Below, piece by piece: positions 3,372 through 31,863 of a DNA stretch of 33,923 nucleotides. Positions within the stretch are counted from its first letter, which is position 1. Each line of letters opens with the position of its first letter. The position numbers were made by a program, and so were the translations under genes. The notes under the pieces are model-generated. The model worked only from the letters and a program-made list of their open reading frames with translations. It did no database searches and was not told where the DNA came from. This stretch comes from Dehalococcoidia bacterium (GTDB lineage Bacteria; Chloroflexota; Dehalococcoidia; DSTF01; JACRBR01), in assembly GCA_031430415.1 (NCBI GenBank), contig JANPBN010000097.1, forward strand, positions 1 to 33,923, given 5' to 3'.

Positions 3372-3400
3372 GAAGGGGCGAAGCTTAAGGCTTCGCCCCT
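3372..3400. terminator. Bidirectional stem-loop between convergent genes
   Basis: AAGGGGCGAAGC (3372-3383), loop TTAAG, GCTTCGCCCCTT (3389-3400) form a perfect 12-bp GC-rich stem, followed by TTTC on the plus strand. It overlaps the stop codon of the minus-strand GT4 gene. Confidence 0.7.
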
Positions 3401-4527: not shown

Positions 4528-4530
4528 TCG

Positions 4531-12857: not shown

Positions 12858-12862
12858 CCCGC

Positions 12863-13525: not shown

Positions 13526-13533
13526 GCTGCCTC

Positions 13534-14904: not shown

Positions 14905-14916
14905 CGACCACCCCCT

Positions 14917-17012: not shown

Positions 17013-17793
17013 GGGAACCCTCCCGTTTTGCCCGGTTCAAGGACCAGGTGAACGAATAGATCGCAGGCGGCAACAGGATCGCCGCCATGATGGTGAGGAT
17101 GACCACCTGCGGCGCCACGTCGATGAGGCTGGCGCCATCGAAGGCGGACCGGATGCCGGTCAGCGCGTGTGTCAGCGGGACAAGTTGGGTCAGCGGCTCG
17201 ACCCAGTCAGGGAGCGCCTGCACCGGGTAGATGGCGCCGCCAAGCACAGCTGTGACGGCGGAGTACGCGATCAGCACCGGATCGCCCTGCTTCACGAGAA
17301 GCATGAACGCCGCGGACATCGCACCCATCGCGAGAAAGGTGAGCATGGCGGGGATGAAGACCGCGATGACGGCGACCGGGTCGGCGCTGTGCCAGAAACC
17401 AAGAACGGCGACACCGAATACGACGAAGAGCGACATCCGGAACATGGAGAACAGGAAGCGGAATCCCCACAGCGATGCGAGGAGTTGGGTGTCGCTGATT
17501 GGTGCGAGCAGCATCGGCTCGAGTGTTCCCGCGCGCTGGTTGTCGTTGATCGCCCGCGGTATCGCCGCGAGACCCTGCATGAAGACATCCATGAACGCGA
17601 GCCCAAGGAAGATGAACGCGACGTAGCTGCCGTTCTCCTCTTCGATCAAGTCGGAGCGGCCGTTGATGGCGGTTCCCGTGAAGTAGATGAGGCCGATCAT
17701 GGTGAAGACGCCCGCGACCTGCCACACAGCGGCCAGCCGGTAGCTACCCCAGATCAAGAAGTCGCGGCGGAGGTACGCCATCGCCACGCTCAT
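16999..17793 (-). CDS. ABC-2 type exporter permease (Wzm/TagG-like)
   Basis: About 264 aa with six hydrophobic helices and the ABC-2 signature region QRAGTLEPMLLAPIS. ATG (MSVAMAYLRRDF) forms an ATGA overlap with the ATPase gene stop. The track extension to 17889 is Arg-rich. Confidence 0.8.
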   Translation of the reverse strand: MSVAMAYLRRDFLIWGSYRLAAVWQVAGVFTMIGLIYFTGTAINGRSDLIEEENGSYVAFIFLGLAFMDVFMQGLAAIPRAINDNQRAGTLEPMLLAPISDTQLLASLWGFRFLFSMFRMSLFVVFGVAVLGFWHSADPVAVIAVFIPAMLTFLAMGAMSAAFMLLVKQGDPVLIAYSAVTAVLGGAIYPVQALPDWVEPLTQLVPLTHALTGIRSAFDGASLIDVAPQVVILTIMAAILLPPAIYSFTWSLNRAKREGSLGEY

Positions 17794-18821
17794 GCCGGCA
17801 CCCGCTCTCGCGCTTCGACGCCGCGGCTGCGGGCGACGATCATGGTGAACATCTCCTCGAGAGTGAGTTCGCGTTTTCCGCACGACCACACATCGCCGCC
17901 GCTCTCGACGATGGACCGAACGATTGCGGGTACGGCTGCGGTGTCGCGCTTCAGGGCAAGTTCGAGGCGGTACTGATCGCCGCTGATGAGTACGGCCTTC
18001 AGCGAATCAACGCCCGGCACGGCGCGTAGTGACTCGATGGCCGCGTAGGTCAGCCCGCCGATGACGATCTGGTACAACTCGTCGGCCTGAAGCAGGTCAC
18101 GAAGTTCACCGATTTCGCCGATCATCTGGATCTCGCCAGAATCGATGAATGCAATCCGGTCGCAGAGCATTTCGGCTTCGGCCATGATGTTCGTCGCTAG
18201 GATCACGGTGCGTCGCTCATTGACGACGCGCTCGCGCACGAGTTGCCGGAGATCGAGTGCCGCCATCGGATCGAGTGCCCGCGTCGGTTCGTCCATGATC
18301 AGAATGTCAGGATCGTTGAGAAGCCCACGGGCGATGGATGCGCGCTGCTTCATCCCGGACGAGTAGTGGTGCATGCGGAGGTTCGCGGCGTGGGAGAGGC
18401 CCACGAGTTCGAGCAGTTCAAGCGCACGGCGCCGCGCGTCGCGGGCGGGAATACCGTAGAGCGCGGCGTAGAACAGCAGATTGTCGAGCGCCGAAAGGCG
18501 CCAGTAGAACGTGCGCTCGTCGCCGTACACGACGCCGATGCGCCTCCGAACCGCGAGGCTGTCCTTCACGACATCGAGCCCCGTGACGGTCGCCGTGCCG
18601 GAGGTCGGGATGCTGAGCGTCGAAAGGATCTTGACGAGCGTCGTCTTACCCGCGCCGTTCGGGCCGAGCAGTCCGAAGATCTCTCCATGCGGCACCGTCA
18701 GGCTGACGCTGTTCAATGCGACCTTGCCGGGCTCATGCTTGAAGATCGACTTCCATCCCTGCTGGGCCGGGAACTGCATCACAAGGTCGCGTGTCTGGAT
18801 CGCCGGCAGTGCGTGACTCAT
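17790..18821 (-). CDS. ABC transporter ATP-binding protein (DrrA/CcmA-like NBD with a ~100-aa C-terminal extension)
   Basis: Walker A GLLGPNGAGKTT, signature YSSGMKQR, Walker B ILIMDEPTRALD, H-loop region ILATNIM. Start MSHALPAIQTRDL is preceded by GGAGGA and forms an ATGA overlap with the upstream stop. The track ORF to 19271 is an Arg-rich extension. The C-terminal ~100 aa after the NBD are non-ABC. Confidence 0.9.
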   Translation of the reverse strand: MSHALPAIQTRDLVMQFPAQQGWKSIFKHEPGKVALNSVSLTVPHGEIFGLLGPNGAGKTTLVKILSTLSIPTSGTATVTGLDVVKDSLAVRRRIGVVYGDERTFYWRLSALDNLLFYAALYGIPARDARRRALELLELVGLSHAANLRMHHYSSGMKQRASIARGLLNDPDILIMDEPTRALDPMAALDLRQLVRERVVNERRTVILATNIMAEAEMLCDRIAFIDSGEIQMIGEIGELRDLLQADELYQIVIGGLTYAAIESLRAVPGVDSLKAVLISGDQYRLELALKRDTAAVPAIVRSIVESGGDVWSCGKRELTLEEMFTMIVARSRGVEARERVPA

Positions 18822-20635
18822 AGCGCGATCCTCCGCGCCTTGATGGAACCCACAACGAAACCGGCGAGCCACAGTCCCTGGCGTGCGCCGATCCCGGCAA
18901 CCGTTTTGGCTGAGTGAGGCCAGTTGCGTACCGGCCAGACATCGATGCGCGAGCTGACGGTGCCTACCCATGGCGCCGCGACGAGCAGCCATCGCCGCTG
19001 CCGGCGAGCCGCCGCCAGCGCGATGCCGGCCGCGGCAAGATCGAAGTACATCGTCTGGCGCGAGACGAAGATGCCGCTCACGAGCGTGCGATTTGCGTAC
19101 TCCGGTGCACGGGCAAGCAGCATCGGTACCTGCGCTGCGATGCGCATCTCCCGGCGCGGCCACCCTGCATTGGCCGCGTCGCGTGGGAACACGCGAAACT
19201 GGTAGACCTCTTCGCGGAACCGGGAGTTCCAGCCAAGCCGCCTCAAGCGCCACGCTAGCTCGGTATCCCATCCAAGCCTCGGTCCGCTCTGCGAATCGAA
19301 GGAGTCGGCGAAGCCACCCGCGGCAAGGGCGACGGCGTTGCGGTAAAAGGTGTTCGTGATCGGGAACATGTGCTCCGATGGCGGCGACTTCTCGTCCGGA
19401 TCGGGGCGCGTTCCGGCTACCTCGAGGTAGCGCTCCATGCTGCCATCGGCTGCGAAGATCGGCCCGGTGATGACCGCGGTGTCGCCGTCGAACCAGGTGA
19501 TCGCCGACTCGATCCAGTCCGGCGGCACGTGACAGGTGTCTTCGATGTGCGCTGAGATATCGCTGCGGAGCCCGGCCAGGACTTCGTTGCGAGAGGTTGG
19601 GCCGTCCACGCCAATGACCGTGCGGCGCACGTCACAGGCCGACGACCGCGCCATCGCGGCCACGATGTCCGGCGTATCGCGGTGGCGTCCGTCGTCGAGC
19701 ACGACGATCTCACGAAGCCCAGCGGGATACGTCTGGTCTTGCACGGCATCGAGCGTGGCGCGCAGGGCGGCGCCGCCGCTCCGCACGGACACGACGACGC
19801 TCACCGTTGGGTCGTCGATGCGCGTCTTGAGGCCTGCGCCATCGCCTGGGCGGCGCGCGCACTCGAGGATCAGAACATCGCGCAGGGTGGGGAGCGCCCA
19901 ACGAATCAGGCGGCCGGCTTTCCGCAGGGCGTATTCCGGCACGCTGAGGAGTTCCATCTCCATGAACGACTGCTCTGCCGTGACGGCGTCGCACCGCTGT
20001 ACGTGGAGGCCCGCTCCGCGCGCAATGTCGCGTAGTTCATCGCGATGGTAGAGTCGCGCCGTGTCGGTCGAAGGCCAGCCGAGCGAGAGCGCTGCAGTTT
20101 CGCCCTTCGGCGTGAAGGGCTTCCCGCGCATCGCCGAAAGCCGAAGGTCGAGTTTCGCCTGGTTTCGCGTCGCGACCAGGAGTTTGCCATGTGCTGCAAG
20201 CATGCGGCGGAGCGCGCGGAGTAGGCGCTGCGCATTCGGCTCGTCGAGTGCTTCGAGCACCAACGGAAGCACGATGAGGTCGTACGGCCCATCGGTCGCC
20301 TCGATGTCCGGCAGCGCGCTTGTAGTGACGTGGCGCGTCACGAAGCTCTTGGCCCCCTCAGTGAGGTAGGTGCCGGGAAGCTGCCACACACGAAGGTCCT
20401 TCGCGAATCGCGCCACGGACTCAACGAGCAGCGCGCTGCCGCCGATGATGAGCGTCCGGCCCGATGCGTGATGCTTCGACCGGCTGACAAGGTCGGCGAC
20501 GAGCGGCGCACCAAGCGTGAGATGGTGGTACGCGCGTTCGGCGATCTCGAGGTCATCGAGCACGTTCGCGACGAACGCGCGGGCCTCTTCTGGTGGCGGT
20601 GCGACAGCAGGAGCGGTGAGTGTCGTCGTCGTCAC
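18818..20635 (-). CDS. Fusion protein: N-terminal Rossmann/methyltransferase-like domain, GT2 glycosyltransferase domain, C-terminal membrane segments
   Basis: 605 aa; GTG start in a GTGA overlap. N-terminal ~270 aa: RTLIIGGSALLVESVA...YDLIVLPLVLEAL...GKLLVATRN, a class-I MTase-like layout with an atypical motif I. Middle: VSVVVSVRSGGAALRATLDAVQDQTYP, VVLDDG, DTELAWRLRRLGW (GT2). Hydrophobic C-terminus as in the two GT2 paralogues. Confidence 0.75.
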   Translation of the reverse strand: MTTTTLTAPAVAPPPEEARAFVANVLDDLEIAERAYHHLTLGAPLVADLVSRSKHHASGRTLIIGGSALLVESVARFAKDLRVWQLPGTYLTEGAKSFVTRHVTTSALPDIEATDGPYDLIVLPLVLEALDEPNAQRLLRALRRMLAAHGKLLVATRNQAKLDLRLSAMRGKPFTPKGETAALSLGWPSTDTARLYHRDELRDIARGAGLHVQRCDAVTAEQSFMEMELLSVPEYALRKAGRLIRWALPTLRDVLILECARRPGDGAGLKTRIDDPTVSVVVSVRSGGAALRATLDAVQDQTYPAGLREIVVLDDGRHRDTPDIVAAMARSSACDVRRTVIGVDGPTSRNEVLAGLRSDISAHIEDTCHVPPDWIESAITWFDGDTAVITGPIFAADGSMERYLEVAGTRPDPDEKSPPSEHMFPITNTFYRNAVALAAGGFADSFDSQSGPRLGWDTELAWRLRRLGWNSRFREEVYQFRVFPRDAANAGWPRREMRIAAQVPMLLARAPEYANRTLVSGIFVSRQTMYFDLAAAGIALAAARRQRRWLLVAAPWVGTVSSRIDVWPVRNWPHSAKTVAGIGARQGLWLAGFVVGSIKARRIAL

Positions 20636-21825
20636 GCGACCCCCGCCATGCGGCTATCGCGGGTGCGGCTCGATGCCATCGCCTCGAGCATGCCCTCGAG
20701 CTTGGCGCCAACGCGCGTGAGCGACCACGGCTCGGCCCACTCACGGCACGCCGCCGCGGTGCCCGGCTGGCGAGCGAGGTCGATGCCTGCGAGAACCGCG
20801 TCGGCGAGATCGTGGGCCGTGCGGTCACTCAGTAAATCGAAGTAGGTCTTGATCGGAACGGTCACGCCGACGCGTGGATCGGTGATGATCTCGCCGGGGC
20901 CGCTGTAGGCGCTACAGACGACGGGCGTCCCGGCAGCGAGCGACTCCGTCACCACCATGCCAAAGGCCTCCTCGACGGAGGGCAGTACGGTCACAGCGGC
21001 CTGAGCGTATGTGTGCGGCAAGCCTTCCAGCGTGCCGGGGCCGCGGATCTCGATGGCGTCGCGCGCCGAAGCGCTGCGCACGAGGTCGAGGCGCTCGAGC
21101 GTGTACACGTCGGAGCCGAAGTCGAATCCGACGAGACCGAACGGGCCGGCAAGCACGAGACGCGCCTCCGGGCAGCGGCGGTGTATTTCATCCCACGCGC
21201 GGAGCAACAGCGGGCCGCCCTTGCGGGGGTCGCCGAGGTCGCCGGTAAACAGCACCTGCGGGCGCGACAGATCCCGGCCGCCGAGTGGCTTGAATCGGTC
21301 CATATCAACGGGCGGTGGCAGTACCTCGACCGGAACGCCGTACTGCGCGGTGGCCTCGGCGGCGCCGTTCGGTGTCAGCGCGGCGACCTGGTTGGCGCGG
21401 CGCATCAACTGGTTGAACATCCACCGATCGAGCCGCCCGGGCCAGTAGTGATTCTTGACGATGAGGTGATAGAGGTACGGCAGGCCGATCCCCGCCTTGA
21501 GCAGAGGCGCCGCAACTACCGAGGAATAGCTCCACATGTGCGCGACGTCGTACTTGCCACGGATCAGGTGTTCCGTCGCACCGAGCCCGAACCCGTAGAG
21601 CCGCGCCAGCGGCCCGTACCGGTAGGTCAGCGGGTGCGAGAACTGGCGCAGATAGATTACGCGCACGGCGCCGTCATACGTCACGCGGGGCGCGCCGGGT
21701 TTGGACGTGATGATGTCCACCTCATGCCCCTGCGCCGCGAGGTAGCCGGACAGGTCGTGAATGCACCGCTCAGCGCCGCGGCGGATGTACGGCCAATACG
21801 TGGGATACGGGAAGACCACCTTCAT
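20632..21825 (-). CDS. Glycosyltransferase family 4
   Basis: 397 aa. N-terminus MKVVFPYPTYWPYIRRGAERCIHDL. Donor motif LPSVEEAFGMVVTESLAAGTPVVCSAYSGPGEII. Confidence 0.9.
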   Translation of the reverse strand: MKVVFPYPTYWPYIRRGAERCIHDLSGYLAAQGHEVDIITSKPGAPRVTYDGAVRVIYLRQFSHPLTYRYGPLARLYGFGLGATEHLIRGKYDVAHMWSYSSVVAAPLLKAGIGLPYLYHLIVKNHYWPGRLDRWMFNQLMRRANQVAALTPNGAAEATAQYGVPVEVLPPPVDMDRFKPLGGRDLSRPQVLFTGDLGDPRKGGPLLLRAWDEIHRRCPEARLVLAGPFGLVGFDFGSDVYTLERLDLVRSASARDAIEIRGPGTLEGLPHTYAQAAVTVLPSVEEAFGMVVTESLAAGTPVVCSAYSGPGEIITDPRVGVTVPIKTYFDLLSDRTAHDLADAVLAGIDLARQPGTAAACREWAEPWSLTRVGAKLEGMLEAMASSRTRDSRMAGVA

Positions 21826-21864
21826 GTGGTTGTTGTGCCTCGGCTTCGTTGCAATCCGCGCGTA

Positions 21865-22914
21865 CTACTTGAACGCGTGGAAGACGACTTTCGGAATCGG
21901 ATCCTGGAAGTTTGCGTGCAGGGTGAAGCGGGACTTCTCTTCCATGCGCGAGAACCGCGCGAGCTGAGCCCACACGCGATAGCACGTCGTGTTCGGGCGC
22001 CACCACACGTCACTCCGGCCCGAACCCGCGCGGGCGAATTGCGCCAGCGAGTTGCCGACGAACGCCTCGAGATCAGGGTGGTAGACATCGGCGAAGATCG
22101 CGAAGCCACCCGGCTTGACGACCTGCCAGACGGACTCCATCGCGCGGAGCGGCTCGCGAAGGTGAATGAGCAGGTCGCTGACGAAGACCATGTCGAACTG
22201 GCCGAGCTTCTCCGGATTCGCGTCGTAGACGCTGCAGATCACACGGTTGACCTTGGAGTTCTTGATCTCCTTGGCGATGCGGAATCCGACACCCATCTCG
22301 TGATCGACGCCCGACTTGTCGAACTCGTCCATCCAGTTCCGCGGAATGTCGATGTCGCGCATCGATGCGACGTCGATCGAGGTCACATCAGCGCCACGCC
22401 GCTCGAACTCGAACGCCCAGTAGCCGTCGAAGGTCGCGACATCGAGCACGCGCATGCCGGTCATGTCTTCGGGCAGATGGTAGAACGGCAGTTGGTCGCG
22501 GTGGTCGACGTAGCCCGGCGTCGAGACGCCATGGCCCAGGTCGATCGTGTGATACCACTGGTAGCCCGAGATCTTCTCGATGATCGCGCGCGCTTCGGGC
22601 GATGCCGGCTCGGTCAGCGGAGCGATCGGCTTGTTGGTGGGGCGGCCGGCCCGATAGATCGTCGGGTCGTCGTCGGTGTTGGGCGTGTGCCCATTGCCGT
22701 TCGTGTGCCCGTTGCCGTTCCCGTTGTGCCCACCCTTGCGCAGGCCGCTGATGCGGTCGAGCGCCGGGCGCACGACGTACTTGTACGGCACGCTGTTGCG
22801 CACTCGCTCAGCTTGCGTCGCGTCGAGCGCGATGCCGAGCTCCACGGAGCCGATGCGGATGCGGCGTTCGCGCTTCAGTGGCTCGGTCGGCCAGTTGCTT
22901 GTCTGCTGTGGCAT
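21865..22914 (-). CDS. Class I SAM-dependent methyltransferase, paralogue 1 (CmoB/DUF1698-like layout)
   Basis: Start at MPQQTSNW is preceded by GGAGGAGG; the track start 22977 has no RBS. Shared blocks with the other two paralogues: WYHTIDLGHGVSTPGYVDHR, VLDVATFDGYWAFEFERRGA, FDMVFVSDLLIHLREP. It carries a Gly/Asn/His-rich insert (GGHNGNGNGHTNGNGHT). Confidence 0.85.
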   Translation of the reverse strand: MPQQTSNWPTEPLKRERRIRIGSVELGIALDATQAERVRNSVPYKYVVRPALDRISGLRKGGHNGNGNGHTNGNGHTPNTDDDPTIYRAGRPTNKPIAPLTEPASPEARAIIEKISGYQWYHTIDLGHGVSTPGYVDHRDQLPFYHLPEDMTGMRVLDVATFDGYWAFEFERRGADVTSIDVASMRDIDIPRNWMDEFDKSGVDHEMGVGFRIAKEIKNSKVNRVICSVYDANPEKLGQFDMVFVSDLLIHLREPLRAMESVWQVVKPGGFAIFADVYHPDLEAFVGNSLAQFARAGSGRSDVWWRPNTTCYRVWAQLARFSRMEEKSRFTLHANFQDPIPKVVFHAFK

Positions 22915-22948
22915 GGTTCCTCCTCCGGTTTGGTGCGGCCGCACATCG

Positions 22949-23992
22949 TTATTCTGCGTGCGCGCCTGGGGGGACATGCCCCTTCAGAACTACCTTGTGG
23001 AACTTCCCGGCGCGGTTGGTCGCTTCGAACCGCGACACCTCTTCGATCGGGTCGAAGCCGGCGATCTCCATCATCCGTCGCATCGACTTGATGCTGTGGC
23101 GCCACCAGATGCCCATAACGCCGGTGCCCGTGAACTCGCTGACCGGGCGGTCCATCTCTTCGAGCTGTGGGTCGTAGGGCTCGGCGACGATGGCGCAGCC
23201 GCGAGAGACCGAGAACATGTTCTCGATCACCGTCTGCGGATCGCGCAGGCGCAGAAGCAGCTGGCTGATCAGCACGACATCGAACATGCCGAGCCGTTCG
23301 GGTGACACGTCGTAGACATTGACGGCGCGCCGCTCGGCCTTCGAGCCCAGGATCTGCTTCGCAAGCTGGAATCCCTGCCCGGGATATTCGATGCCGATGC
23401 TCGCCTGCTGGTCGTTCCAGATCTTGCGGTGGGAATCTTGCTGCTCGCCCCGTTCGCGCATGGCCTTCAGCTTCGCGAGGCGGGGAATGTCGTGCTCGAG
23501 CGGCGAATCGACATCGATGCCGACGACCTCGGTCGCGCCGCGGCGCTCCATCTCGAAGGACCAGAATCCGTCGTAGGTGCCAATGTCCAACCCTCGCCTG
23601 CCGGTGAGGTCTTCGGGCAGACCGAACAGCGGGACTGTGGCGCGGTTGTCGATGAAGCCCGGCGTGACGACGCCGTGCCCCAGGTCGATGGTGTGATACC
23701 AGCCGATCCCGGCGATGCGTTCGCGCATGTCCCGGGCCACCGGATCGTCATCGAGGGGCAGCGCCTCGGCTGTTGGCGCTTCGTTGACGGAGGTGACGTT
23801 CGGCGGTGCAGCATGCTCGCGCCGCCGGACGATGTCGAGGCCGGGACGCACGACGCGGCGATACAGACCGCTGTGCCGGACTTGCTCGGCCCGCTCAGCG
23901 TCGGCCGAGACTTCGACGCGGAAGCCGGCGATGCTGAAATCACGCTTGGTACGCGAAGCCAATTTTGGTTTCCTCGAGCGTTCGGCGGCCAC
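22949..23992 (-). CDS. Class I SAM-dependent methyltransferase, paralogue 2; first gene of the long downstream operon
   Basis: 347 aa, GTG start (GAGG 9 nt upstream); the alternative is TTG at 23962. Blocks: WYHTIDLGHGVVTPGFIDNR, GLDIGTYDGFWSFEMERRGA, FDVVLISQLLLRLRDP. Confidence 0.85.
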   Translation of the reverse strand: MAAERSRKPKLASRTKRDFSIAGFRVEVSADAERAEQVRHSGLYRRVVRPGLDIVRRREHAAPPNVTSVNEAPTAEALPLDDDPVARDMRERIAGIGWYHTIDLGHGVVTPGFIDNRATVPLFGLPEDLTGRRGLDIGTYDGFWSFEMERRGATEVVGIDVDSPLEHDIPRLAKLKAMRERGEQQDSHRKIWNDQQASIGIEYPGQGFQLAKQILGSKAERRAVNVYDVSPERLGMFDVVLISQLLLRLRDPQTVIENMFSVSRGCAIVAEPYDPQLEEMDRPVSEFTGTGVMGIWWRHSIKSMRRMMEIAGFDPIEEVSRFEATNRAGKFHKVVLKGHVPPGAHAE

Positions 23993-24031
23993 GCGCTGCG
24001 GCCTCGAATAGGTGGCATAGGGACGGTCGGT

Positions 24032-24065
24032 ATCTTATGGACAGGCGGTTAACCGATGGTTAACC
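24032..24065 (-). promoter_or_regulatory. SARP-type promoter: heptamer direct repeat plus -10 box upstream of methyltransferase paralogue 2
   Basis: The minus strand reads GTTAACC-ATCG-GTTAACC-GCCTGTCCA-TAAGAT. On the plus strand this is two GGTTAACC palindromes at 24047-24054 and 24058-24065, with ATCTTA at 24032-24037. It lies in the only long (207 nt) intergenic gap of the cluster, about 40-70 nt upstream of the start at 23992. Confidence 0.6.
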
Positions 24066-24199
24066 GGAACGACGGATTTGGCCTGCGCCGATCGCTGCCT
24101 GGCCCGCTATGAAGATGCGTTCAACCGGGGTACCGCGGCGAATCGGAATCGGCGGAGAGGCGGGAACGTCCGGCGCACGGAGTGCCAGTTATTGGCGGG

Positions 24200-25345
24200 T
24201 TAAATTCGGCGAATGCGCCGGCGGAGCGACTGCCAGAACGACGGCCTCATTTTCAGCACATCGTGCATCGGCAGCTCGCTGAGCGCTGCAACCAGCCGGC
24301 CCCCCGTCGCCGCGCCCACGCCGTCATCGAGCTGCTCATCGACATCGAGCATGGAACTGAGGATCACGATCTGACTGAACTGGTTGGCCACGGCGAGCCG
24401 GTAGTCGAGCCAGCAATCGTCATAGGAGTAATCTCGCACGCCGCCCTCCACGAGGAGCTCGTGGTATTGAGGCAGCAGCTCTCGTTCCGCGAGCGCGCGA
24501 TCGTTCGGCTGCAGGCTGCTGACGAACAGGTTCGCGATATCGATAGGCCCGCGGCCCCGCACGGCTGTCTGCCAGTCGATGAATGCTCGCGGCCCCCCCG
24601 CTTCGTCGAAGAGCACGTTGTTGACGCGCAGATCGCCGTGAACGAGCGTCTGCGGCGCCGTCGACAGCCGATCGACGACGGACTGGTCACGGGACAGCGT
24701 CGCACCGAGGCGAAGGATCACCGGCGGCATGTGCCGGCCGAAACGCCCCTCGAACGAACGCCACGCTCCCGGTCCTTCGGCGACGCCCAGCGCGGTGACG
24801 GATGGATCGTTGGGCGTGGGTAGCCAACGTTGGTCGCGAAGCTCGGCGGATTGCCACCAGGCCGCGTGCATTCCAGCTATCTGCTCGACGATGGCGCTCG
24901 CCTCGCTCAGGCTGCAGCCCCGGAGGAGGTCGCCGGCACGGGCACCGGTTACGTCCTCGAGCAGAAGCACGGCGCTCAGACCATCGGCGACGCCAAAGTA
25001 CATGGCGGGAACAGGGACGCCCACGCGCTCGGCCAGGGTGTCGTAGAAGTGCTGCTCGCGCTCGTAGATGCGTAGCCGCGACGCGATCTCGCGTGTGGCG
25101 GGGGCGCTCGACGGGAACTTCGCGATGAGTGTTACCGGGGCCTGATCCTCGGGGATGTCGTAGGTCAGACGCACGCGCACCACGCGCCCGGCCATGCCCT
25201 TGCCGGCGGGCTCCACATGAATGGACGCGACGTTCGCGCGCTGCAGCACAACGCCTCGGAGCGCAGCGGTGAGCCACGCGGCGCTGAGAGACTCCGGGCC
25301 GTCCGGGATGTCGCGGACGGGTGTGTGGCGCGTCGCGATTATCAT
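24200..25345 (-). CDS. APH/choline-kinase-fold phosphotransferase (eukaryotic-like kinase fold)
   Basis: 381 aa. Catalytic loop LVHGDLRVNNVLF (HxDxxxxN) and metal-binding IDWQ. Confidence 0.8.
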   Translation of the reverse strand: MIIATRHTPVRDIPDGPESLSAAWLTAALRGVVLQRANVASIHVEPAGKGMAGRVVRVRLTYDIPEDQAPVTLIAKFPSSAPATREIASRLRIYEREQHFYDTLAERVGVPVPAMYFGVADGLSAVLLLEDVTGARAGDLLRGCSLSEASAIVEQIAGMHAAWWQSAELRDQRWLPTPNDPSVTALGVAEGPGAWRSFEGRFGRHMPPVILRLGATLSRDQSVVDRLSTAPQTLVHGDLRVNNVLFDEAGGPRAFIDWQTAVRGRGPIDIANLFVSSLQPNDRALAERELLPQYHELLVEGGVRDYSYDDCWLDYRLAVANQFSQIVILSSMLDVDEQLDDGVGAATGGRLVAALSELPMHDVLKMRPSFWQSLRRRIRRI

Positions 25346-25351
25346 CAGCCG

Positions 25352-26950
25352 CTAGCCGCCGAGTTTCGCGATGACCTGGTTGAGGAGCACGAGCACCTTT
25401 GCCTGTGCGACACAGTCGGCGAGATAGTCGCCGGAACCACCGCATGAATCGACGTGCGGGCGCAGATCCTTCAGCGTAACGAGTGCGGCTGCGGGCGCGT
25501 TCGCTGCAATCTGGGCTGCCGCCGTCGCGAGCGGCGTGTTGATCTGAGAAGCGCTGGACCCTGGCGCGAATGCGGATCCGGGCAGCGCCGAGACGACGCC
25601 GGAGATCCAACTCGGGTCGGCGACAAGATAGCGGGCGAGTGCGAAGTCATCGCCGGCGGTACCGGGGTTGTAGGCATCGCCGACGAGAACCACGGCGCCA
25701 TCGGGAAACAGAGCCAGTGCGTGGGCGCCATCTGCTCCGCCGAAGAAGTCGGTGGTGACGTGGCCGCCGCTCCCGAAGGTTGCGTCGGGACTCCCATCCT
25801 GGTTGTAACGGAAGAGCGCGAAGTCAAAGCTGGTCGCCGGGTGGACGCTGTGGCCGGCGCCGATGATCTTGCCATCGGGCTGAATCGCGAGCCACAGGAT
25901 CTGGTCGTACTCGCCAGAGACATCGGTGACGCCGATGCCGGGTGCGCCGAACGCGGCAAATCCGGTGTCGAGACTGCCATTTGTGTTCAGCCGCATGATG
26001 GCGGCATCGTTGTCAGCGCCGGCCGGGTTGAACGCGTAGCCCGCCGCGACGATCTTTCCGTCGGCCTGGAGCGTCACGGCCCACGCGATGTCGGTTCCGC
26101 CGAGGAAGTCACGCATCACCAGGCCGCCCCAGCCGAATGACGCGTCGCGGCCACCGTTGGCGTTGTATCGCGCGACGGCCATGTCGTGGTTCGCCGTCTT
26201 GGGGTTGAACGCCATGCCGACGGCGACGATCCTTCCATCGGGCTGAAGAGCGATCTTCATCGCCGCGTCGTTGCTTCCCGCGAAGTCCGTCGTAACGAGC
26301 CCACCCCAACCGAAACTGCCGTCGCGGCTGCCGTTTGCGTTGTAGCGTGCCAGCGCGAACTCTGAGTTGTTTGCGGTCCGATAGGCGAATCCCGCAGCAA
26401 CGATCTTGCCATCGACCTGAACGGCGACACCGAGCACAGTGTCCGCGCCGCCGAAGAAGTCGGTCATGACGATGCCGCCCCAGCCAAACGTGCCGTCACG
26501 GCTGCCGTTCGCGTTGAGGCGCGCAATCCCGAAGTCCGCGTTTCCTGCCGCGCGATCAGCGCGCCCGGCAATCACGATCTTGCCATCCGGTTGAAGCGCG
26601 ACGGACAGGCCTTCGTCGTACCCGCCAACGAAGTCCACGAGGACGATGCCGCCCTGCCCAAACGACGGATCGAGCGTTCCGTTCGGCCGGTACCGAAGCA
26701 CGGTGGCATCGAACGATCCCGTCGACGGATTGCGGGCCTTACCGGCGATCACCATGTTTCCATCGGGTTGCACCGCCATGGAGAACGGCTCGTCCTCGTA
26801 CCCGCCGGCGCCGGAAACATCGAGGAGCGCTCGGCCGTTGGCGCCGAACGTTGGATCGAGCAGCACCGGTACGGTGGCCGCATCGGCGACGAGGAGGATC
26901 GAAAACAGCGCCGCAGAAGTTGCTGCGAGGAGAAGCAGCGCGCGTTTCAT
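25352..26950 (-). CDS. Secreted delta-60-repeat protein (7 repeats, predicted beta-propeller) with a Cys-containing helical C-terminal module
   Basis: Signal peptide MKRALLLLAATSAALFSILLVADA. Seven ~58-61-aa repeats follow, of the form [LR]D.[ST]FG.GG.V..DF.GG.D.A.AVALQ.DGKIV.AG.A.......DFA.ARYN.NGS. The ATG forms an ATGA overlap with the upstream methyltransferase stop. Confidence 0.85.
   Translation of the reverse strand: MKRALLLLAATSAALFSILLVADAATVPVLLDPTFGANGRALLDVSGAGGYEDEPFSMAVQPDGNMVIAGKARNPSTGSFDATVLRYRPNGTLDPSFGQGGIVLVDFVGGYDEGLSVALQPDGKIVIAGRADRAAGNADFGIARLNANGSRDGTFGWGGIVMTDFFGGADTVLGVAVQVDGKIVAAGFAYRTANNSEFALARYNANGSRDGSFGWGGLVTTDFAGSNDAAMKIALQPDGRIVAVGMAFNPKTANHDMAVARYNANGGRDASFGWGGLVMRDFLGGTDIAWAVTLQADGKIVAAGYAFNPAGADNDAAIMRLNTNGSLDTGFAAFGAPGIGVTDVSGEYDQILWLAIQPDGKIIGAGHSVHPATSFDFALFRYNQDGSPDATFGSGGHVTTDFFGGADGAHALALFPDGAVVLVGDAYNPGTAGDDFALARYLVADPSWISGVVSALPGSAFAPGSSASQINTPLATAAAQIAANAPAAALVTLKDLRPHVDSCGGSGDYLADCVAQAKVLVLLNQVIAKLGG
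25622..26860 (-). repeat. Seven in-frame ~175-185-bp divergent tandem repeats encoding the delta-60 blades
   Basis: Read from the translation. Repeats start at LDPTFGANG, LDPSFGQGG, RDGTFGWGG, RDGSFGWGG, RDASFGWGG, LDTGFAAFG and PDATFGSGG. Confidence 0.8.
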
Positions 26951-27927
26951 CGGGCGGAGACTTCCGTCGTGCGCGCGTGTGCCGGTGCGGCCGTATCGTC
27001 ACTCGAACGTCGCGCCCGGAAGATCACCTTTTCGACCGGAAACGGGTGGTGGTAGACCAGCGGCAAGCGCGCGACCTCGTCGACAGTATCGAAGCCGGCG
27101 ACCTGGAGCATTGTGCGCAGCGTCATCGTCGACGGCACGGACCAGATGTACTGGTAGAAGCCGAAGAACTGCGTCATGGCGGTGTTCCCCAGCCCCTCCA
27201 ACTCCGGATTGTACGGTTCGGCGAGGAGCAGGAACCCTCCCGGCTTCAGCATGGGGTAGATGCGTTCCAGCGCACGCTGCGGGTCGCGCAGGTGCAGCAT
27301 CAGATCGCTGACGAACACCATGTCGAAGGTGCCGAGGTCATGCGGCGAGAGATCGTACACGCTCACAGTTCGCCGCTCGACGCGCGAGCCGAGCAGTTCG
27401 TGGGCGAGGCGAAATCCGGCGCCTGTCGGCGTATCTTCGTCCGGGGCCATGCGTTCGAGCGTTCGGAGCGGAATGTCGGCGTGAAACCATGACGGGATGT
27501 CCGTGGCGACGACGACGGCGCCCCGGCGCTCCATCTCGAACGCCCAAAACCCGTCGAAGGTAGCGACTTCGAGCACGCGCATACCGTGCATGTCGGCGGG
27601 CAGGCAATAGCGATCCCTGATGGCGCGGTGGTCAACATATCCGGGCGTCACAACGCCGTGGGGCAGTTCAATGACGTGGTACCAGTCGACACCCTGAACG
27701 CGCTCGGCGATCGCGCGCGCTGGCGGAGACACGTACGCGGACGGATCGAGCGTGGCGCGCGTCCCGGGCAGATCCAGTGGCGCCGAAGACTGGGCGGCAC
27801 GGCCGAACAGCCGCAGGACGGGCGCGGCAAGGCGACGGATGCGGCGCGCCTGCCGCTCTTCGACGCCAAGCGCAATCTCGAAGCCCGCGATGCGGAGGCG
27901 TCGGCGCCGGACCATCGTGTCAGCCAT
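26947..27927 (-). CDS. Class I SAM-dependent methyltransferase, paralogue 3
   Basis: Start at MADTMVRRRRLRIAGF lies 11 nt after the upstream stop. The track extension to 28026 is Arg-rich and overlaps the upstream gene. Blocks: WYHVIELPHGVVTPGYVDHR, VLEVATFDGFWAFEMERRGA, FDMVFVSDLMLHLRDP. Confidence 0.85.
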   Translation of the reverse strand: MADTMVRRRRLRIAGFEIALGVEERQARRIRRLAAPVLRLFGRAAQSSAPLDLPGTRATLDPSAYVSPPARAIAERVQGVDWYHVIELPHGVVTPGYVDHRAIRDRYCLPADMHGMRVLEVATFDGFWAFEMERRGAVVVATDIPSWFHADIPLRTLERMAPDEDTPTGAGFRLAHELLGSRVERRTVSVYDLSPHDLGTFDMVFVSDLMLHLRDPQRALERIYPMLKPGGFLLLAEPYNPELEGLGNTAMTQFFGFYQYIWSVPSTMTLRTMLQVAGFDTVDEVARLPLVYHHPFPVEKVIFRARRSSDDTAAPAHARTTEVSAR

Positions 27928-27938
27928 TGTCGTCTTTC

Positions 27939-28706
27939 TCAGCTGCCGGCGGCGGCGGCCGCGCCATCGATTTCTGCGGTGGCTCGGCCGGCGGCCGGCG
28001 CGTAGCGTCGCGCGTGCTCCTGCCATGCCGGAGTCAACTCCTGCTGGTCCTTCAGCGTATCCATCGAACGCCAGAAACCACGGTGACGATAGATGTACAG
28101 ATCCTGCCGCTGCGCGAGATGTGGAAGCACATCGCGCTCAAGATTCTCGCCGTGCCAGCGATCGAAGGCCGACGAGTCGAACACGAAGAAGCCGGCGTTG
28201 ATCAATCGATCGGGGAGGATGGGCTTCTCCTCGAAGTGCGTGACGCATCCCTGGTCGTCCGAGTGCACAAGCCCGTACTGCGAGCGAAGCGGCACGGCCG
28301 TCATCGTCGCGTTCCCTCGATGCGTCTCGTGGAACTCGACGAGCGCTGCGAGGTCGATGTCGCCCAGTCCATCGCAATATGTCGCGTGGAACGTGGGCGT
28401 CAGGTAGTCGCGGCAACCAAGGATGCGGCCGCCTGTGCCGGTCGTATCGCCCGTATCGACGCAGCGTACACGCCATCCGAGGGCGTCCTCTCGTCGCGCG
28501 AAATGGTCGATGATTTGGTCTTTCAGGTAGCCGACCGAGAGCACGAAGTCACGGTATCCGGCGGCAGCGTAGATGCGCATGACCTGCTCAACGATCGGCG
28601 CATCGCCGACGTCCATCAGAGCCTTCGGCATGCGCTGCGTGTACGGGTAGGCGCGGGTACCGAGTCCGCCGCACAGGATCACCACGGTCATGTCGCGCTG
28701 CGTCAT
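27939..28706 (-). CDS. rfbF: Glucose-1-phosphate cytidylyltransferase-like sugar nucleotidyltransferase
   Basis: About 255 aa. VVILCGGLGTRAYPYTQRMPKALMDVGDAPIV, VDTGDTTGTGGRI, YCDGLGDIDL, INAGFFVFD and HRGFWRSMDTLKD follow the RfbF pattern. The ATG (MTQRDMTVV) forms an ATGA overlap with the upstream stop; the alternative ATG is at 28691. Confidence 0.75.
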   Translation of the reverse strand: MTQRDMTVVILCGGLGTRAYPYTQRMPKALMDVGDAPIVEQVMRIYAAAGYRDFVLSVGYLKDQIIDHFARREDALGWRVRCVDTGDTTGTGGRILGCRDYLTPTFHATYCDGLGDIDLAALVEFHETHRGNATMTAVPLRSQYGLVHSDDQGCVTHFEEKPILPDRLINAGFFVFDSSAFDRWHGENLERDVLPHLAQRQDLYIYRHRGFWRSMDTLKDQQELTPAWQEHARRYAPAAGRATAEIDGAAAAAGS

Positions 28707-29743
28707 CGGACGCTCCCGTTGGCGCCGGCCTTCGCGAACTCGCGTGGCAGCGATGGCTCGAATCCCAGGAACTCGCGATACCACCGCACGCTCTGCATGA
28801 TGCCCGAATCCAGGGACACTTGCGGCGCCCAGTCGAGGATCCGTGCCGCCTTCTCCGAGGAGAGCCATTGCCGTGCTATCTCGCCGCGGTTCTGGCCCTG
28901 AATGACAGGCTCCAACGGCGCCGGAGCGTGCGCGAGAATCTGGCGAACGATCTCGAGCACAGAGTAACCCCGTCCCCAGCCGAAGTTGAACGCCTGCCCG
29001 CGCACATCGTCGCGACCGACGTTCCGCGCGAGGGTCAAGTATGCATCGACCGCGTCACTCACGTACATGTAGTCTCGCTCAAGCGTTCCATCGCTGCGGA
29101 TCACCGGCGCCTCGCCGTTGAGCATCGAGCGGATGGTGCCGGGGACGACGCGGGACCAGTTCAGGTCGCCGGGGCCGTAGATGTTCGCGCAGCGAACGAT
29201 TGCCATCGGCAGGCTATAGGTGACGGCGTAGCTGCGGGCGATCGTCTCCGCACAGAGCTTGGACGCGTCGTAGGGGTAGACCGCGGACAACGGACTATCC
29301 TCGTGGTACGGAAGAACCGGTTGATCGCCATACACCTTGTCGCTCGAGGCGAAGACGAGGCTCTGAAGGAACGAACTCTGTCGGGCTGCCTCCAGCAGCG
29401 TCCAGGTTCCGCGGATGTTCGACTCGAACGTCGACAGCGGCGAGCGATTCGCGACGCCTACGATGGCCTGGGCAGCGAGATGGAAGCAGTGCTGCACCTC
29501 GTATTCGTTGAAGGCGCGTTCAACGGTGGCGTAGTCGGCGATCGAACCGTGGACGATCTCCACCCGGCCGGTGAGGCCGAGCATGTCCAGCCGCCTGTCG
29601 CCACGTGAGTCGCGGAGAATGCCGACGACGTGCGCGCCCTGCTCGACGAGAGCAGCAGCGAGTTGACTCCCCACAAAGCCACCGATGCCGGTGACAAGCG
29701 CTCGCTGCCCACGCCAGTAGCCGGTGCCGTTGTTCGAGGCCAT
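28703..29743 (-). CDS. Extended-SDR NAD-dependent sugar dehydratase/epimerase (CDP-glucose 4,6-dehydratase-like)
   Basis: YWRGQRALVTGIGGFVGSQLA (GxxGxxG), SSDKVYG and the catalytic YPYDASK (YxxxK). The N-terminal YWRG..LVTG and the position next to the rfbF-like gene suggest RfbG-type. Start at ATG 29743 (AAGGGAG about 7 nt upstream) overlaps the upstream TAA by 1 nt (TAATG). Confidence 0.65.
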   Translation of the reverse strand: MASNNGTGYWRGQRALVTGIGGFVGSQLAAALVEQGAHVVGILRDSRGDRRLDMLGLTGRVEIVHGSIADYATVERAFNEYEVQHCFHLAAQAIVGVANRSPLSTFESNIRGTWTLLEAARQSSFLQSLVFASSDKVYGDQPVLPYHEDSPLSAVYPYDASKLCAETIARSYAVTYSLPMAIVRCANIYGPGDLNWSRVVPGTIRSMLNGEAPVIRSDGTLERDYMYVSDAVDAYLTLARNVGRDDVRGQAFNFGWGRGYSVLEIVRQILAHAPAPLEPVIQGQNRGEIARQWLSSEKAARILDWAPQVSLDSGIMQSVRWYREFLGFEPSLPREFAKAGANGSVR

Positions 29744-30471
29744 TACCATGCTCCCTTGCCGCTGACGATCACGGGAATTGTCCGTGCGAGAATCCAGATG
29801 TCGAGCCAAAGGGACCAGTCCCGCGCGTACCGGATGTCCATTTCCACCATCTCGCCAAACGACAACAAGCTGCGACCGTTCACCTGCCACAGACCTGTGA
29901 TGCCGGGCACGGCCAGCACACGGTGCGCGTGGTAGTCGCTCAGTGGGTTGCCCGCTTCCTCCGGCAGGGCGGGACGCGGCCCGACGAGGCTCATATCGCC
30001 GCGGAGCACGTTGAACAGCTGCGGCAGCTCATCGATGCTGAAGCGGCGGATCCAGCCGCCGACAGAGGTGCGTCGAGGGTCATGCTTGATCTTGAAGAGC
30101 GGTCCGTCAGCTTGGTTTTGGTTCGCCAGGCCACCCTTGGCGACATGGGCGTTCACAGCCATCGAGCGAAACTTGTACATACGGAACGGACGCCCGCTGA
30201 GCCCGACGCGCTCCTGCACGTGGAGTACCGGCCCACTGGAGTCGAGCTTGATCGCTAGCGCCACGACGAGCATTGGCGGGCCGAGCAAGACGAGTCCGGC
30301 CGCAGCGACGACGATGTCAATCAACCGCTTGAGCGCCATCTGGAGGCGCTTGGCCTGCTGGCCCCACGAAGTCGGCGCCGGAATCACCCACATGGCGCTC
30401 ACAGCCACCAGGCGAAGCGATTCTGCGGGCAGCGGTGTCGCGGTCAATGTGGTGCCGAGATGCTGTTCCAT
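29743..30471 (-). CDS. Initiating phosphoglycosyl transferase (bacterial sugar transferase family, small WbaP/WcaJ/PglC-like)
   Basis: 242 aa. LKRLIDIVVAAAGLVLLGPPMLVVALAIKLDS re-entrant helix, then RPFRMYKFRSM, GPLFKIKHDPR, DELPQLFNVLRGDMSLVGPRP, PGITGLWQV. GAAGGA lies 8 nt upstream of the ATG. Confidence 0.9.
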   Translation of the reverse strand: MEQHLGTTLTATPLPAESLRLVAVSAMWVIPAPTSWGQQAKRLQMALKRLIDIVVAAAGLVLLGPPMLVVALAIKLDSSGPVLHVQERVGLSGRPFRMYKFRSMAVNAHVAKGGLANQNQADGPLFKIKHDPRRTSVGGWIRRFSIDELPQLFNVLRGDMSLVGPRPALPEEAGNPLSDYHAHRVLAVPGITGLWQVNGRSLLSFGEMVEMDIRYARDWSLWLDIWILARTIPVIVSGKGAW

Positions 30472-30496
30472 CGTGCGTGTCCTTCGCGTCGCCGAG

Positions 30497-30529
30497 AACC
30501 TAGCAACGGGTGGTTAAGCCTCGGTTAAG
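30497..30529 (-). promoter_or_regulatory. SARP-type promoter: heptamer direct repeat plus -10 box upstream of the phosphoglycosyl transferase operon
   Basis: The minus strand reads CTTAACC-GAGG-CTTAACC-ACCCGTTGC-TAGGTT. On the plus strand this is GGTTAAG at 30512-30518 and 30523-30529, with AACCTA at 30497-30502. The repeats overlap the last codons and stop of the 71-aa ORF. Confidence 0.6.
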
Positions 30530-30729
30530 TCGCGCCTTGCGTCATCCGTCTTGATGACGGTTCGAATAAATGAAAGCGCGTGAGCAAACTCGCGAAAGCG
30601 CATTCCGGCGTTTGTCGCGACGTGCCGAATCTCGCCGTGCTCCACCATGCCGGGCTCTTCGACCCACAGGCGGATGACGAACGTCTCATAACGCTTTGTG
30701 CTGGCGGGATGTCCGCGAGTGGTCCGCAA
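30514..30729 (-). CDS. Small (71 aa) protein of unknown function
   Basis: TTG start, preceded by GGGGGTAG. The sequence MRTTRGHPASTKRYETFVIRLWVEEPGMVEHGEIRHVATNAGMRFREFAHALSFIRTVIK.. has the pattern F-V-I-R-L-W..E, then G-x-I-x-H-V, then F..L..FI. I recognise this pattern from uncharacterised small proteins. It has its own SARP-type promoter. Confidence 0.5.
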   Translation of the reverse strand: MRTTRGHPASTKRYETFVIRLWVEEPGMVEHGEIRHVATNAGMRFREFAHALSFIRTVIKTDDARRDLTEA

Positions 30730-30795
30730 TGGCTACCCCCAAGATCGCCCGTACGCGATCTCCATCGCTATCGCGCAGGTGCGCGGCTAACGCGG

Positions 30796-30828
30796 ATGGT
30801 ACGGGGACGTGGTTAACTGGTAGTTAAG
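30796..30828 (-). promoter_or_regulatory. SARP-type promoter: heptamer direct repeat plus -10 box upstream of the 71-aa ORF
   Basis: The minus strand reads CTTAACT-ACCA-GTTAACC-ACGTCCCCG-TACCAT. On the plus strand this is GGTTAAC at 30811-30817, AGTTAAG at 30822-30828 and ATGGTA at 30796-30801. It lies about 30 nt downstream of the SARP gene stop. Confidence 0.55.
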
Positions 30829-30858
30829 GCCGTGCGACGCCCTGGACGAGAGGGGTGA

Positions 30859-31863
30859 TCATGGAAATAGCGACTCAAACGCACGTACCGTGTCTGTGCC
30901 GGGAGAAGCGCCGATCTCTCGTTTGAGCATCGTGCGACAGACGGCGTACCAGGCGCCGGCGCGCGCATGCTGATTCAACGCGCCGTGGCACTGCATCAGC
31001 ATGCGGTAGGCGTCCTCGCGGCAAGGATCCGCATCGATGATCTTGTGGCAATAGCGAATGGCGTCCCGCGCATCGCCGTTCTGCATGGCAAGTTCCGCGA
31101 GATTGCTCACGATCTCCAAGTACACGTCGCGTAGCTGTTCGCGACGGATGATCGTCCAATCGTCGTAGATGTCTTCTTCGAGCAGGTCGCCGGCGTACAG
31201 ACGCTCGGCCTCGCGGTACTCGCGGCGCGCGAGTTCAATCTCTTGGGCAGCTTGAAACGCCGTGCCGCGCCGCCAGTGCCGCTCCAGCGATTCGGTATCG
31301 ATCCAGACCTTGGCATCCCGGTTCAGGCCGTATGTGCCATCCCGGAAGACCACCCAGCGGTCATGCGTGCCCGCCGTCCTTCCGGGTTCCAGAATGCTGC
31401 GCAGGTTGTGCGCTGCGACCTTCAGTGACACGCCGCCGGTGACCGGGTCGGTGTCAGGCCACAGCATCTCCATAAGTGCGTCTCGCGGCAAGATGCGATC
31501 CCTGTGGCTGGCGAGGATCTTCAAGAGCGAACGAGCCTTGCCACCGAGGCGAGCGGTGACATCCTCACCATTCACAGCGACACGGAACGACGCCATCATG
31601 TGGATCGCGAGGCTAGGGGACGGGGCGGCGCCGCGATCTGTTTTGATCGCGTCCGTATCGCTCGCTGCATCGTCGCGCAGCAGGTAGGGCGGCACGTCCG
31701 ACCGGGGGGACGCCATTCTGCGTGTGGTCACGTTGTGCCCCTCGATAACTGGAGCGCCCTCAACGCGGAAACGACGGACTGTAGCGCGGCCGCGAGTGCC
31801 GCACGATGCATGCTCGAAAACAGAAGCCACCCCCAGAGGCACGGCTTCCTTGCCTTGCACCAT
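30859..31863 (-). CDS. SARP-family transcriptional activator (OmpR-type winged helix plus BTAD domain; AfsR/DnrI/RedD family)
   Basis: FRVAVNGEDVTARLGGKARSLLKILASHRDRILPRDALMEMLWPD is a Trans_reg_C-like domain. The TPR-like BTAD follows (AQEIELARREYREAERLYAGDLLEEDIYDDW...REDAYRMLMQCHGALNQHARAGAWYAVCRTMLKREIGASP). The start is uncertain: ATG at 31863 gives an ~88-aa N-terminal extension, while ATGs at 31599/31596 (MMASFRV) give a canonical ~245-aa small SARP. None has a clear SD. Confidence 0.85.
   Translation of the reverse strand: MVQGKEAVPLGVASVFEHASCGTRGRATVRRFRVEGAPVIEGHNVTTRRMASPRSDVPPYLLRDDAASDTDAIKTDRGAAPSPSLAIHMMASFRVAVNGEDVTARLGGKARSLLKILASHRDRILPRDALMEMLWPDTDPVTGGVSLKVAAHNLRSILEPGRTAGTHDRWVVFRDGTYGLNRDAKVWIDTESLERHWRRGTAFQAAQEIELARREYREAERLYAGDLLEEDIYDDWTIIRREQLRDVYLEIVSNLAELAMQNGDARDAIRYCHKIIDADPCREDAYRMLMQCHGALNQHARAGAWYAVCRTMLKREIGASPGTDTVRAFESLFP

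Follow-up and report, generated by a model that had tools for sequence, protein, structure and literature searches.

A C-terminal helical module with two invariant cysteines on two secreted proteins of a Dehalococcoidia glycan locus

We analyzed a stretch of 33,923 nucleotides from a Dehalococcoidia bacterium (the whole of contig JANPBN010000097.1 in GenBank assembly GCA_031430415.1; hereafter the window, C97 in our numbering), which encodes two secreted proteins that are built on different scaffolds and end in similar tails. One is a delta-60 (DUF5122) beta-propeller protein, encoded at 25352..26950 on the reverse strand, and the other is a TSP3-repeat protein, encoded at 2291..3349 on the forward strand. 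The rest of the locus is largely taken up by a glycan cluster on the reverse strand, in a downstream part (3385..25345) and an upstream part (26947..31863) on either side of the propeller gene. The host genome bin is fragmented (2.85 Mb in 666 contigs, 65.8% GC), and in it the two proteins are the only carriers of the tail. Here, we describe this tail as a C-terminal module, compare its two copies, delimit the family to which they belong and weigh what the module may do at the locus.

The delta-60 protein has 532 amino acids (aa), a Sec-type signal peptide (MKRALLLLAATSAALFSILLVADA) and seven repeats. Pfam DUF5122 (PF17164) matches it above the cut-off at 1.7e-62 in six stretches and TIGR02608 matches at 4.7e-109 in seven stretches, with the repeated units of ~60 aa that define the scaffold. 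The junctions on both sides of the gene are tight when read from the sequence: its ATG overlaps, as ATGA, with the stop codon of the methyltransferase gene upstream, and on the other side the kinase gene starts 6 nt past its own stop. In one relative (G014, contig C12, ~357.9-361.2 kb; loci L015 and L020) the delta-60 gene is split into open reading frames (ORFs) of 417 aa and 176 aa, with the tail on the latter; either a frameshift that has made the gene a pseudogene or an error in the assembly would account for this. The gene of the TSP3-repeat protein has its likely start at the ATG at 2291, with an open frame that extends back to a GTG at 2228, and the protein carries a signal peptide (MLNNIYRRLGMMLIAIAATGALILGAASPAFA). 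It is matched by Pfam TSP3_bac (PF18884) at 2.1e-34 in eight stretches, and repeated DxDxDGxxD units are present. As a CglD or MtsD equivalog it scored far below the NCBIfam cut-offs and is not a member of either. Outside the tail the two scaffolds (DUF5122/delta-60 versus TSP3_bac) are unrelated, as the initial annotation of the window had held.

That annotation had also proposed that the two proteins end in the same Cys-containing helical module, and the peptides that it quoted are present in the translations as described: the delta-60 protein ends in AAALVTLKDLRPHVDSCGGSGDYLADCVAQAKVLVLLNQVIAKLGG and the TSP3-repeat protein in ALALGKLNAILQHTNGCPTVPDQNDKILDCNAQAEFRPVLQLLISNVTAL. The tail on the delta-60 protein spans 25355..25618 on the reverse strand (88 aa, residues 445-532; 63.6 bits with a hidden Markov model of the module); its coordinates had earlier been given on the forward strand, and here the annotation was mistaken. 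The tail on the TSP3-repeat protein spans 3029..3346 on the forward strand (106 aa, 76.3 bits). The region common to both begins at D-[PV]-x-[WF] (DPSWISGVVSALPGSAF and DVEFVQTVLQGISDTVF) and extends to the C-terminus. The similarity first noticed is real, and the shared region is longer than had been seen.

Compared directly, the two tails give a weak BLASTP alignment (29% identity over 59 aa, E 0.002), and a phmmer search within the genome did not link them, its single match being out-of-frame junk on another contig (C310). In 60 related genomes, a search with the TSP3 tail as the sole query recovered two TSP3 orthologues and also four delta-60 orthologue tails at E 2e-5 to 4e-3 per genome. 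The profile-profile comparison is much stronger: with three TSP3 tails aligned to five delta-60 tails, hhalign gave 99.0% probability and E 7.6e-18 over 89 aligned columns. Reversing the alignment and shuffling its columns 30 times gave no score above 15.9, whereas the real alignment scored 95.7, which rules out Ala/Leu composition as the cause of the match. We regard this as decisive, at the level of sequence: the two tails are homologous along their full length of ~90-105 residues. The test by which the proposal was to stand or fall was thereby passed. A word-indexed search of a 5.8-billion-protein set with either tail matched only the query itself, which reflects the sensitivity limit of that search and not absence of relatives, and a profile of the tail alignment found no match among PDB sequences below E 0.49. 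Pfam and NCBIfam models were silent as well, with none covering either tail even at E≤10.

AlphaFold2 models, made from small alignments, predict the same four-helix bundle for both tails, with an identical order of elements. The delta-60 tail is modeled with a mean confidence (pLDDT) of 96.6 and a predicted template-modeling score (pTM) of 0.86, with helices at residues 2-10, 23-38, 42-56 and 69-87, and the TSP3 tail with pLDDT 97.1 and pTM 0.88, with helices at 2-11, 20-45, 49-68 and 86-104. A 14-aa insertion in the TSP3 tail lengthens the hairpin of helices 2 and 3, and the fold is otherwise that of the delta-60 tail. The predicted layout is an up-down bundle, in which a short helix 1 is followed by a conserved 'LP..AF' turn and by helices 2, 3 and 4. 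In both models a single beta-bridge joins the conserved 'AF' turn after helix 1 to the loop between helices 3 and 4. This acidic loop of 9-12 residues is bracketed by the two invariant Cys (consensus VDGCGxxPDxNDWIxDCxAQ). In the TSP3 tail the Cys codons lie at 3245-3247 and 3284-3286 on the forward strand, with C-x12-C spacing; in the delta-60 tail they lie at 25442-25444 and 25412-25414 on the reverse strand and bracket a short C-x9-C variant. The two window copies lack the loop Trp, which is replaced by Tyr or Lys and is present in 153 of 166 family members. Delta-60 tails have linkers rich in Ser, Thr and Ala (S/T/A-rich) between helices 1 and 2, for example PGSSASQINTPLATAAA. Both tails end in an amphipathic helix of the bundle (VLVLLNQVIAKLGG and VLQLLISNVTAL), with neither a transmembrane segment nor a basic tail. 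Given the signal peptides of the carriers, the two Cys would most simply be read as forming a disulfide that staples the loop.

A profile of nine tails was searched against 1.84 billion cluster representatives and matched 1657 of them at E≤1e-3 and 478 at E≤1e-10. Position, Cys and motif counts were taken from the top 150 of the 1657 matches. In 146 of these 150 the module lies within 12 residues of the C-terminus, and exactly two Cys per module are found, again, in 146/150. A TSP3-type D.D.DG..D motif stands at most 25 residues upstream of the module in 115 of them, and seven proteins have 2-3 module copies. Both Cys are invariant in a 54-sequence and a 92-sequence alignment, as is the Gln at the third position past the second Cys, which extends the two conserved Cys noted in the window tails to the wider family. 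The C-x12-C spacing is kept in 142/166 members, and the loop has a mean net charge of -3.6. Five library proteins (P0004, P0005, P0006, P0008 and P0052) include members with 2-3 copies and a divergent subgroup in which the loop reads 'DGCxxSGxPDxNDWIxDC' and the N-terminal 'DPxW' start is missing.

The scaffolds on which the module is found are diverse. A Pfam scan of 92 full-length matches gave TSP3_bac (48), PD40 (10), DUF5122 (9), DPPIV_N (6), FG-GAP (5) and VWA7_N (5), together with Big_9, PKD, cadherin-like, LRR and beta-helix domains; the tail itself was covered by no model in any of the 92. Exo_endo_phos and dienelactone hydrolase carriers are also present in the family. The module occurs on 76 metagenome contigs, nearly all with one carrier per contig, and GC ranges from 0.43 to 0.67 among the long metagenome loci inspected. 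Within Chloroflexota it is rare: it was found in five of the 93 genomes of the order, all in the family of the window's own genome, and was not found in 400 other genomes sampled across the phylum. Two of the relatives (one of them G009, 97% complete) have the delta-60 copy only. A weak match elsewhere in the order (G037) was rejected as a low-complexity HlyD-like protein. The module is a large, architecturally promiscuous and unannotated domain family.

The initial annotation had been unable to assign the tail to a named domain, and although this holds for direct matches to Pfam and NCBIfam, the module is probably a distant, divergent Cys-loop branch of the FIMAH/FHB four-helix bundles and not a member of the current Pfam family. 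FIMAH (PF22888) is a Pfam family of 81 positions that corresponds to the FHB domain of PDB entry 7NSN. The latter is a multidomain GH92 alpha-1,2-mannosidase of Neobacillus novalis (NnGH92), with a C-terminal four-helix bundle (FHB, 1321-1411) of unassigned function (PMC10167667). Evidence for kinship comes from an hhalign comparison of 166 module sequences with 18 FIMAH domains (91.9% probability, E 6.9e-7, 83 columns), in which the two are in register along all four helices, whereas the reversed and 15 shuffled controls stayed at or below 1%. Independent alignments of module and FIMAH gave 91.1% and E 1e-6 (82-83 columns). In a Foldseek search of the PDB with the short (delta-60) model, 7NSN ranked first (TMq 0.74, 91 columns, probability 0.98, E 0.34). 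A profile of 15 Chloroflexota FIMAH domains falls on residues 1332-1406 of 7NSN, in the FHB domain, at only E 0.084. The architectures also overlap, given that FIMAH is C-terminal in 16/18 Chloroflexota examples and is found on Exo_endo_phos, 5'-nucleotidase, PKD/Big_9 and TSP3 scaffolds, a set that overlaps with that of the module.

Genome-wide searches with PF22888 found nothing in four genomes (G000, G009, G019 and G030); the search in a fifth, G014, matched a gene that is not a module carrier. This relative, which carries the module, also encodes a protein with TSP3 repeats followed by a canonical FIMAH (L034, G014:C6:4152-7325). Hence, FIMAH and the Cys-loop module fill the same architectural slot in that genome. 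A literature search on the FIMAH domain and the delta-60 repeat returned nothing relevant.

At the locus itself, both carriers are co-inherited with an ABC-transporter-type (ATP-binding cassette) glycan cluster in this Dehalococcoidia lineage. The upstream part, delimited by Pfam scan and synteny, begins with a BTAD/SARP-type regulator (30859-31863, reverse strand, as are all cluster genes placed here by Pfam scan), which is followed by a Bac_transf initiating sugar transferase, a NAD-dependent epimerase/dehydratase, a sugar-nucleotidyltransferase, a methyltransferase and the delta-60 protein. Past the delta-60 gene, in the downstream part, come an EcKL/APH-type kinase (24200-25345), two methyltransferases, a GT4, a methyltransferase-GT2 fusion, an ABC ATPase, an ABC-2 permease and GT2s. 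The cluster ends with a 456-aa uncharacterised protein, a P-loop protein, a GT2, a Wzy_C-domain protein (10348-12090) and four more GT4s, with a DUF5010/GH99-like ORF (6863-7972, reverse strand) placed between the GT4 genes. Within this ORF, ARAGORN calls a tRNA-Gln(CTG) at 7326-7399 on the reverse strand, probably a false positive.

The downstream part was delimited by Pfam scans, which count six GT4 in it, and its gene order is kept in six other genomes, as is the order around the delta-60 gene. The delta-60 gene lies inside the operon-like cluster in seven genomes, including the window's own, and each of the three genomes with a TSP3-tail gene has it beside the cluster, which bears out the suggestion that both carriers are tied to the same locus. 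The position of the TSP3-tail gene varies: in the window it stands at the far end of the cluster, in another genome (L018) just upstream of the regulator, and in G014 18 kb from the cluster on the same contig. Kinase orthologues (≥45% identity) occur only in relatives with a delta-60-tail gene, and the other matches are paralogues at ≤42%. The window gives no compositional sign of recent transfer, with a uniform GC of 0.63-0.67 compared with 0.658 for the genome.

Two further observations concern the kinase. Between 16999 and 28026 on the reverse strand the window combines an ABC-2 exporter pair, the EcKL/APH-type kinase and four methyltransferase domains. In ABC-transporter-dependent O-antigen systems, a WbdD-type kinase/methyltransferase caps the chain end and controls its length, and the cluster seems to resemble such systems. 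EcKL/APH-type kinases have moreover expanded by paralogy in this Dehalococcoidia family, where a genome may hold as many as five copies, with matches at E≤1e-40 in 44/61 genomes, including contigs C16, C19, C49 and C487 of the window's own genome (G000).

We propose that the autonomous, extracytoplasmic Cys-loop bundle domain of which both tails are C-terminal copies acts as a docking or anchoring end-piece, and we put the chances of this reading at about even. After export, the two Cys would form the disulfide that staples the loop, and the conserved acidic loop would be the binding surface, possibly in a calcium-dependent manner, given that the module adjoins TSP3-type motifs. The bundle would then hold its scaffold, be it a beta-propeller, a TSP3 spacer, an Ig-like adhesin or a hydrolase, on a partner in the cell envelope or matrix, in the manner of dockerins, S-layer homology (SLH) domains and carbohydrate-binding modules (CBMs). 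By analogy, the architecture of a variable functional domain, a TSP3 spacer and a constant C-terminal module would follow the pattern of these three. In this Dehalococcoidia lineage the partner would most likely be the glycan of the co-inherited cluster or a component exported with it. Such docking would account for two features of the locus: the gene of a secreted propeller is translationally coupled within a sugar operon whose other products are cytoplasmic, and a second protein ending in the same tail is encoded beside the cluster. Removal of the FHB from NnGH92 roughly halves its binding to insoluble yeast cell wall (PMC10167667), and if the module is a relative of this domain, the deletion points weakly to a cell-wall binding role. 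Of the roles suggested by the initial annotation, a classical sorting tag does not fit a tail without a transmembrane segment, and anchoring or docking is what we infer.

A bolder form of the proposal is possible but improbable: the module would be a widespread calcium-dependent 'plug' whose disulfide-stapled acidic Trp loop binds an envelope glycan or receptor, forming a general surface-display system of soil and sediment bacteria, and here it would tether both carriers to the methylated, kinase-modified glycan of the cluster.

Several results weigh against an anchoring end-piece that docks on a glycan. The annotation had asked whether the module recurs on other secreted proteins next to similar clusters. 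It does recur on many scaffolds, but linkage to glycan clusters does not extend outside the lineage: among 119 neighboring ORFs at 19 metagenome loci there was no enrichment of glycosyltransferases or ABC-2 genes, nor was there any at three individually inspected loci outside the lineage, where the neighbors are heterogeneous. A polysaccharide partner hence cannot be general. The window copies are atypical, with the missing Trp and the shortened delta-60 loop, and so may not bind the partners of typical members. The binding partner, the calcium site and the disulfide are, moreover, all three steps that we infer. The relationship to FIMAH is also distant. PF22888 (gathering score 24.8 bits) gave no match to the two tails and eight orthologous tails by hmmscan at E≤10. 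With the long (TSP3) model, Foldseek ranked 7NSN only 45th (TMq 0.39), behind plant pectin-methylesterase inhibitors as the best matches (TMq 0.53-0.58), and neither tail model gave a match at E≤0.001. A four-helix bundle is a common fold, so that similarity of fold counts for little by itself, and because FIMAH is itself uncharacterised, kinship with it transfers little functional information.

The module could instead be a passive structural cap, a folding nucleus or C-terminal stopper that would steady the floppy, calcium-binding TSP3 'wire' or seal the propeller, with no ligand of its own. The frequent position of the module directly after a TSP3-type motif would suit a cap, and in eukaryotic thrombospondins the type-3 repeats wrap around a C-terminal globular domain, which we count in its favor. 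The accessory domains of NnGH92 were likewise found to be mainly important for structural integrity (PMC10167667). However, the module is equally conserved on scaffolds without TSP3, such as the self-closing delta-60 and PD40 propellers, for which a cap would be superfluous, a cap would not be needed in two or three copies, and the strongly conserved, exposed acidic Trp loop looks like a binding surface and not like core. We therefore consider a mere cap unlikely. The multi-copy proteins also enter into a different explanation, in which the bundles pair or trimerise and cross-link carriers such as the delta-60 propeller and the TSP3 protein into a surface lattice or matrix. Helical bundles often oligomerise, and a single locus has been inherited together with two distinct carriers of the tail, but the AlphaFold2 models fold as closed single-chain bundles, at the pTM given above, that leave no exposed hydrophobic helix, and the relatives with the delta-60 copy alone and the mostly single-carrier metagenome loci weigh against it as well. 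This makes oligomerisation distinctly unlikely as the role of the module.

A tie to glycosylation would account for the locus in another way, with the carriers as acceptor substrates, the Wzy_C protein as a possible O-oligosaccharyltransferase and the tail or its S/T/A-rich linker as the recognition site. Such an enzyme would fit a cluster that encodes a Wzy_C-domain protein besides an initiating transferase and an ABC exporter, and the linkers of the delta-60 tails would offer such a recognition site. Neither point extends to the family, given that the S/T-rich linker is conserved neither in its wider membership nor in the TSP3 tails and that the family at large is not adjacent to glycosylation genes; the present data do not distinguish an O-oligosaccharyltransferase from a polymerase or ligase. 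We regard this explanation as very improbable. Least of all do we credit a chance or compositional resemblance between Ala/Leu-rich amphipathic helices, or a known type of C-terminal signal for secretion or sorting. The weak pairwise BLASTP alignment and the failure of phmmer to link the tails would be expected of chance, but the profile-profile match with clean shuffled controls, and a family with hundreds of strong members in which Cys, Cys and Gln are invariant, are not. As for a sorting signal, both carriers have N-terminal Sec signal peptides, and their tails show no transmembrane segment, basic tail or NCBIfam sorting match. Chance or composition and a classical sorting tag are accordingly excluded.

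The family delimited here comprises well over a thousand sequence clusters for which current Pfam and NCBIfam are blank, and it is tied to FIMAH, itself a domain without assigned function. Many secreted proteins of adhesin-like or hydrolytic type carry it at their working end, so that to know the ligand of the tail would be to annotate them all together. An unusually clear experimental handle, with a testable ligand hypothesis, is given by the Dehalococcoidia locus, namely two carriers co-inherited with one glycan cluster, with one of the carriers translationally coupled inside it. If the module is only a structural cap, the result is still a useful domain boundary for annotation and structure prediction, and nothing more.

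Among known systems, FIMAH is the nearest family. Like the module, it consists of ~80-90 residues in four helices of the same order at the extreme C-terminus of secreted multidomain proteins, and the two have in common the sequence logic 'L..L..aE..i..G....A...L..L/F'. Unlike the module, FIMAH is without the two invariant Cys and the acidic 'DGCG..PD.NDWI.DC' loop, in place of which it has 'AF.nev.aq.Gk.I', and it shows no preference for preceding TSP3 motifs. The plant pectin-methylesterase and invertase inhibitors (PDB 1X8Z, 1X90 and 1X91), the best Foldseek matches of the long model, are extracellular, disulfide-stabilised helical bundles. The matches are not significant (E ~0.3-0.9, 14-19% identity), and these proteins come from another kingdom and stand alone instead of being appended to a scaffold, so the resemblance is most likely one of fold analogy.

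In its position and presumed role the module resembles bacterial retention systems. LPXTG, PEP-CTERM and GlyGly-CTERM tags, the C-terminal domains of type IX secretion (T9SS CTD) and SLH/CBM domains are likewise C-terminal on diverse secreted proteins, with presumed retention in the envelope. The module, however, is a soluble helical bundle that has no transmembrane helix, basic tail or beta-sandwich, and no NCBIfam or Pfam model of the sorting-tag or SLH/CBM type matched the tails. A processed sorting signal (LPXTG, PEP-CTERM or GlyGly-CTERM) was rejected, given that the tail ends in a bundle helix with no transmembrane helix or basic tail. Dockerins differ from the module in being built of paired EF-hand-like calcium-binding repeats instead of a four-helix bundle, and the dockerin model PF00404 matched nothing in any Pfam scan of the tails, their orthologues or the 92 full-length members; nor is there a cohesin-like partner identified here, and only one or two carriers occur per genome. 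Even so, the dockerin is our working analogy for 'one plug on many proteins', since both are small, C-terminal on many unrelated secreted scaffolds and sometimes duplicated, with acidic calcium-type motifs nearby.

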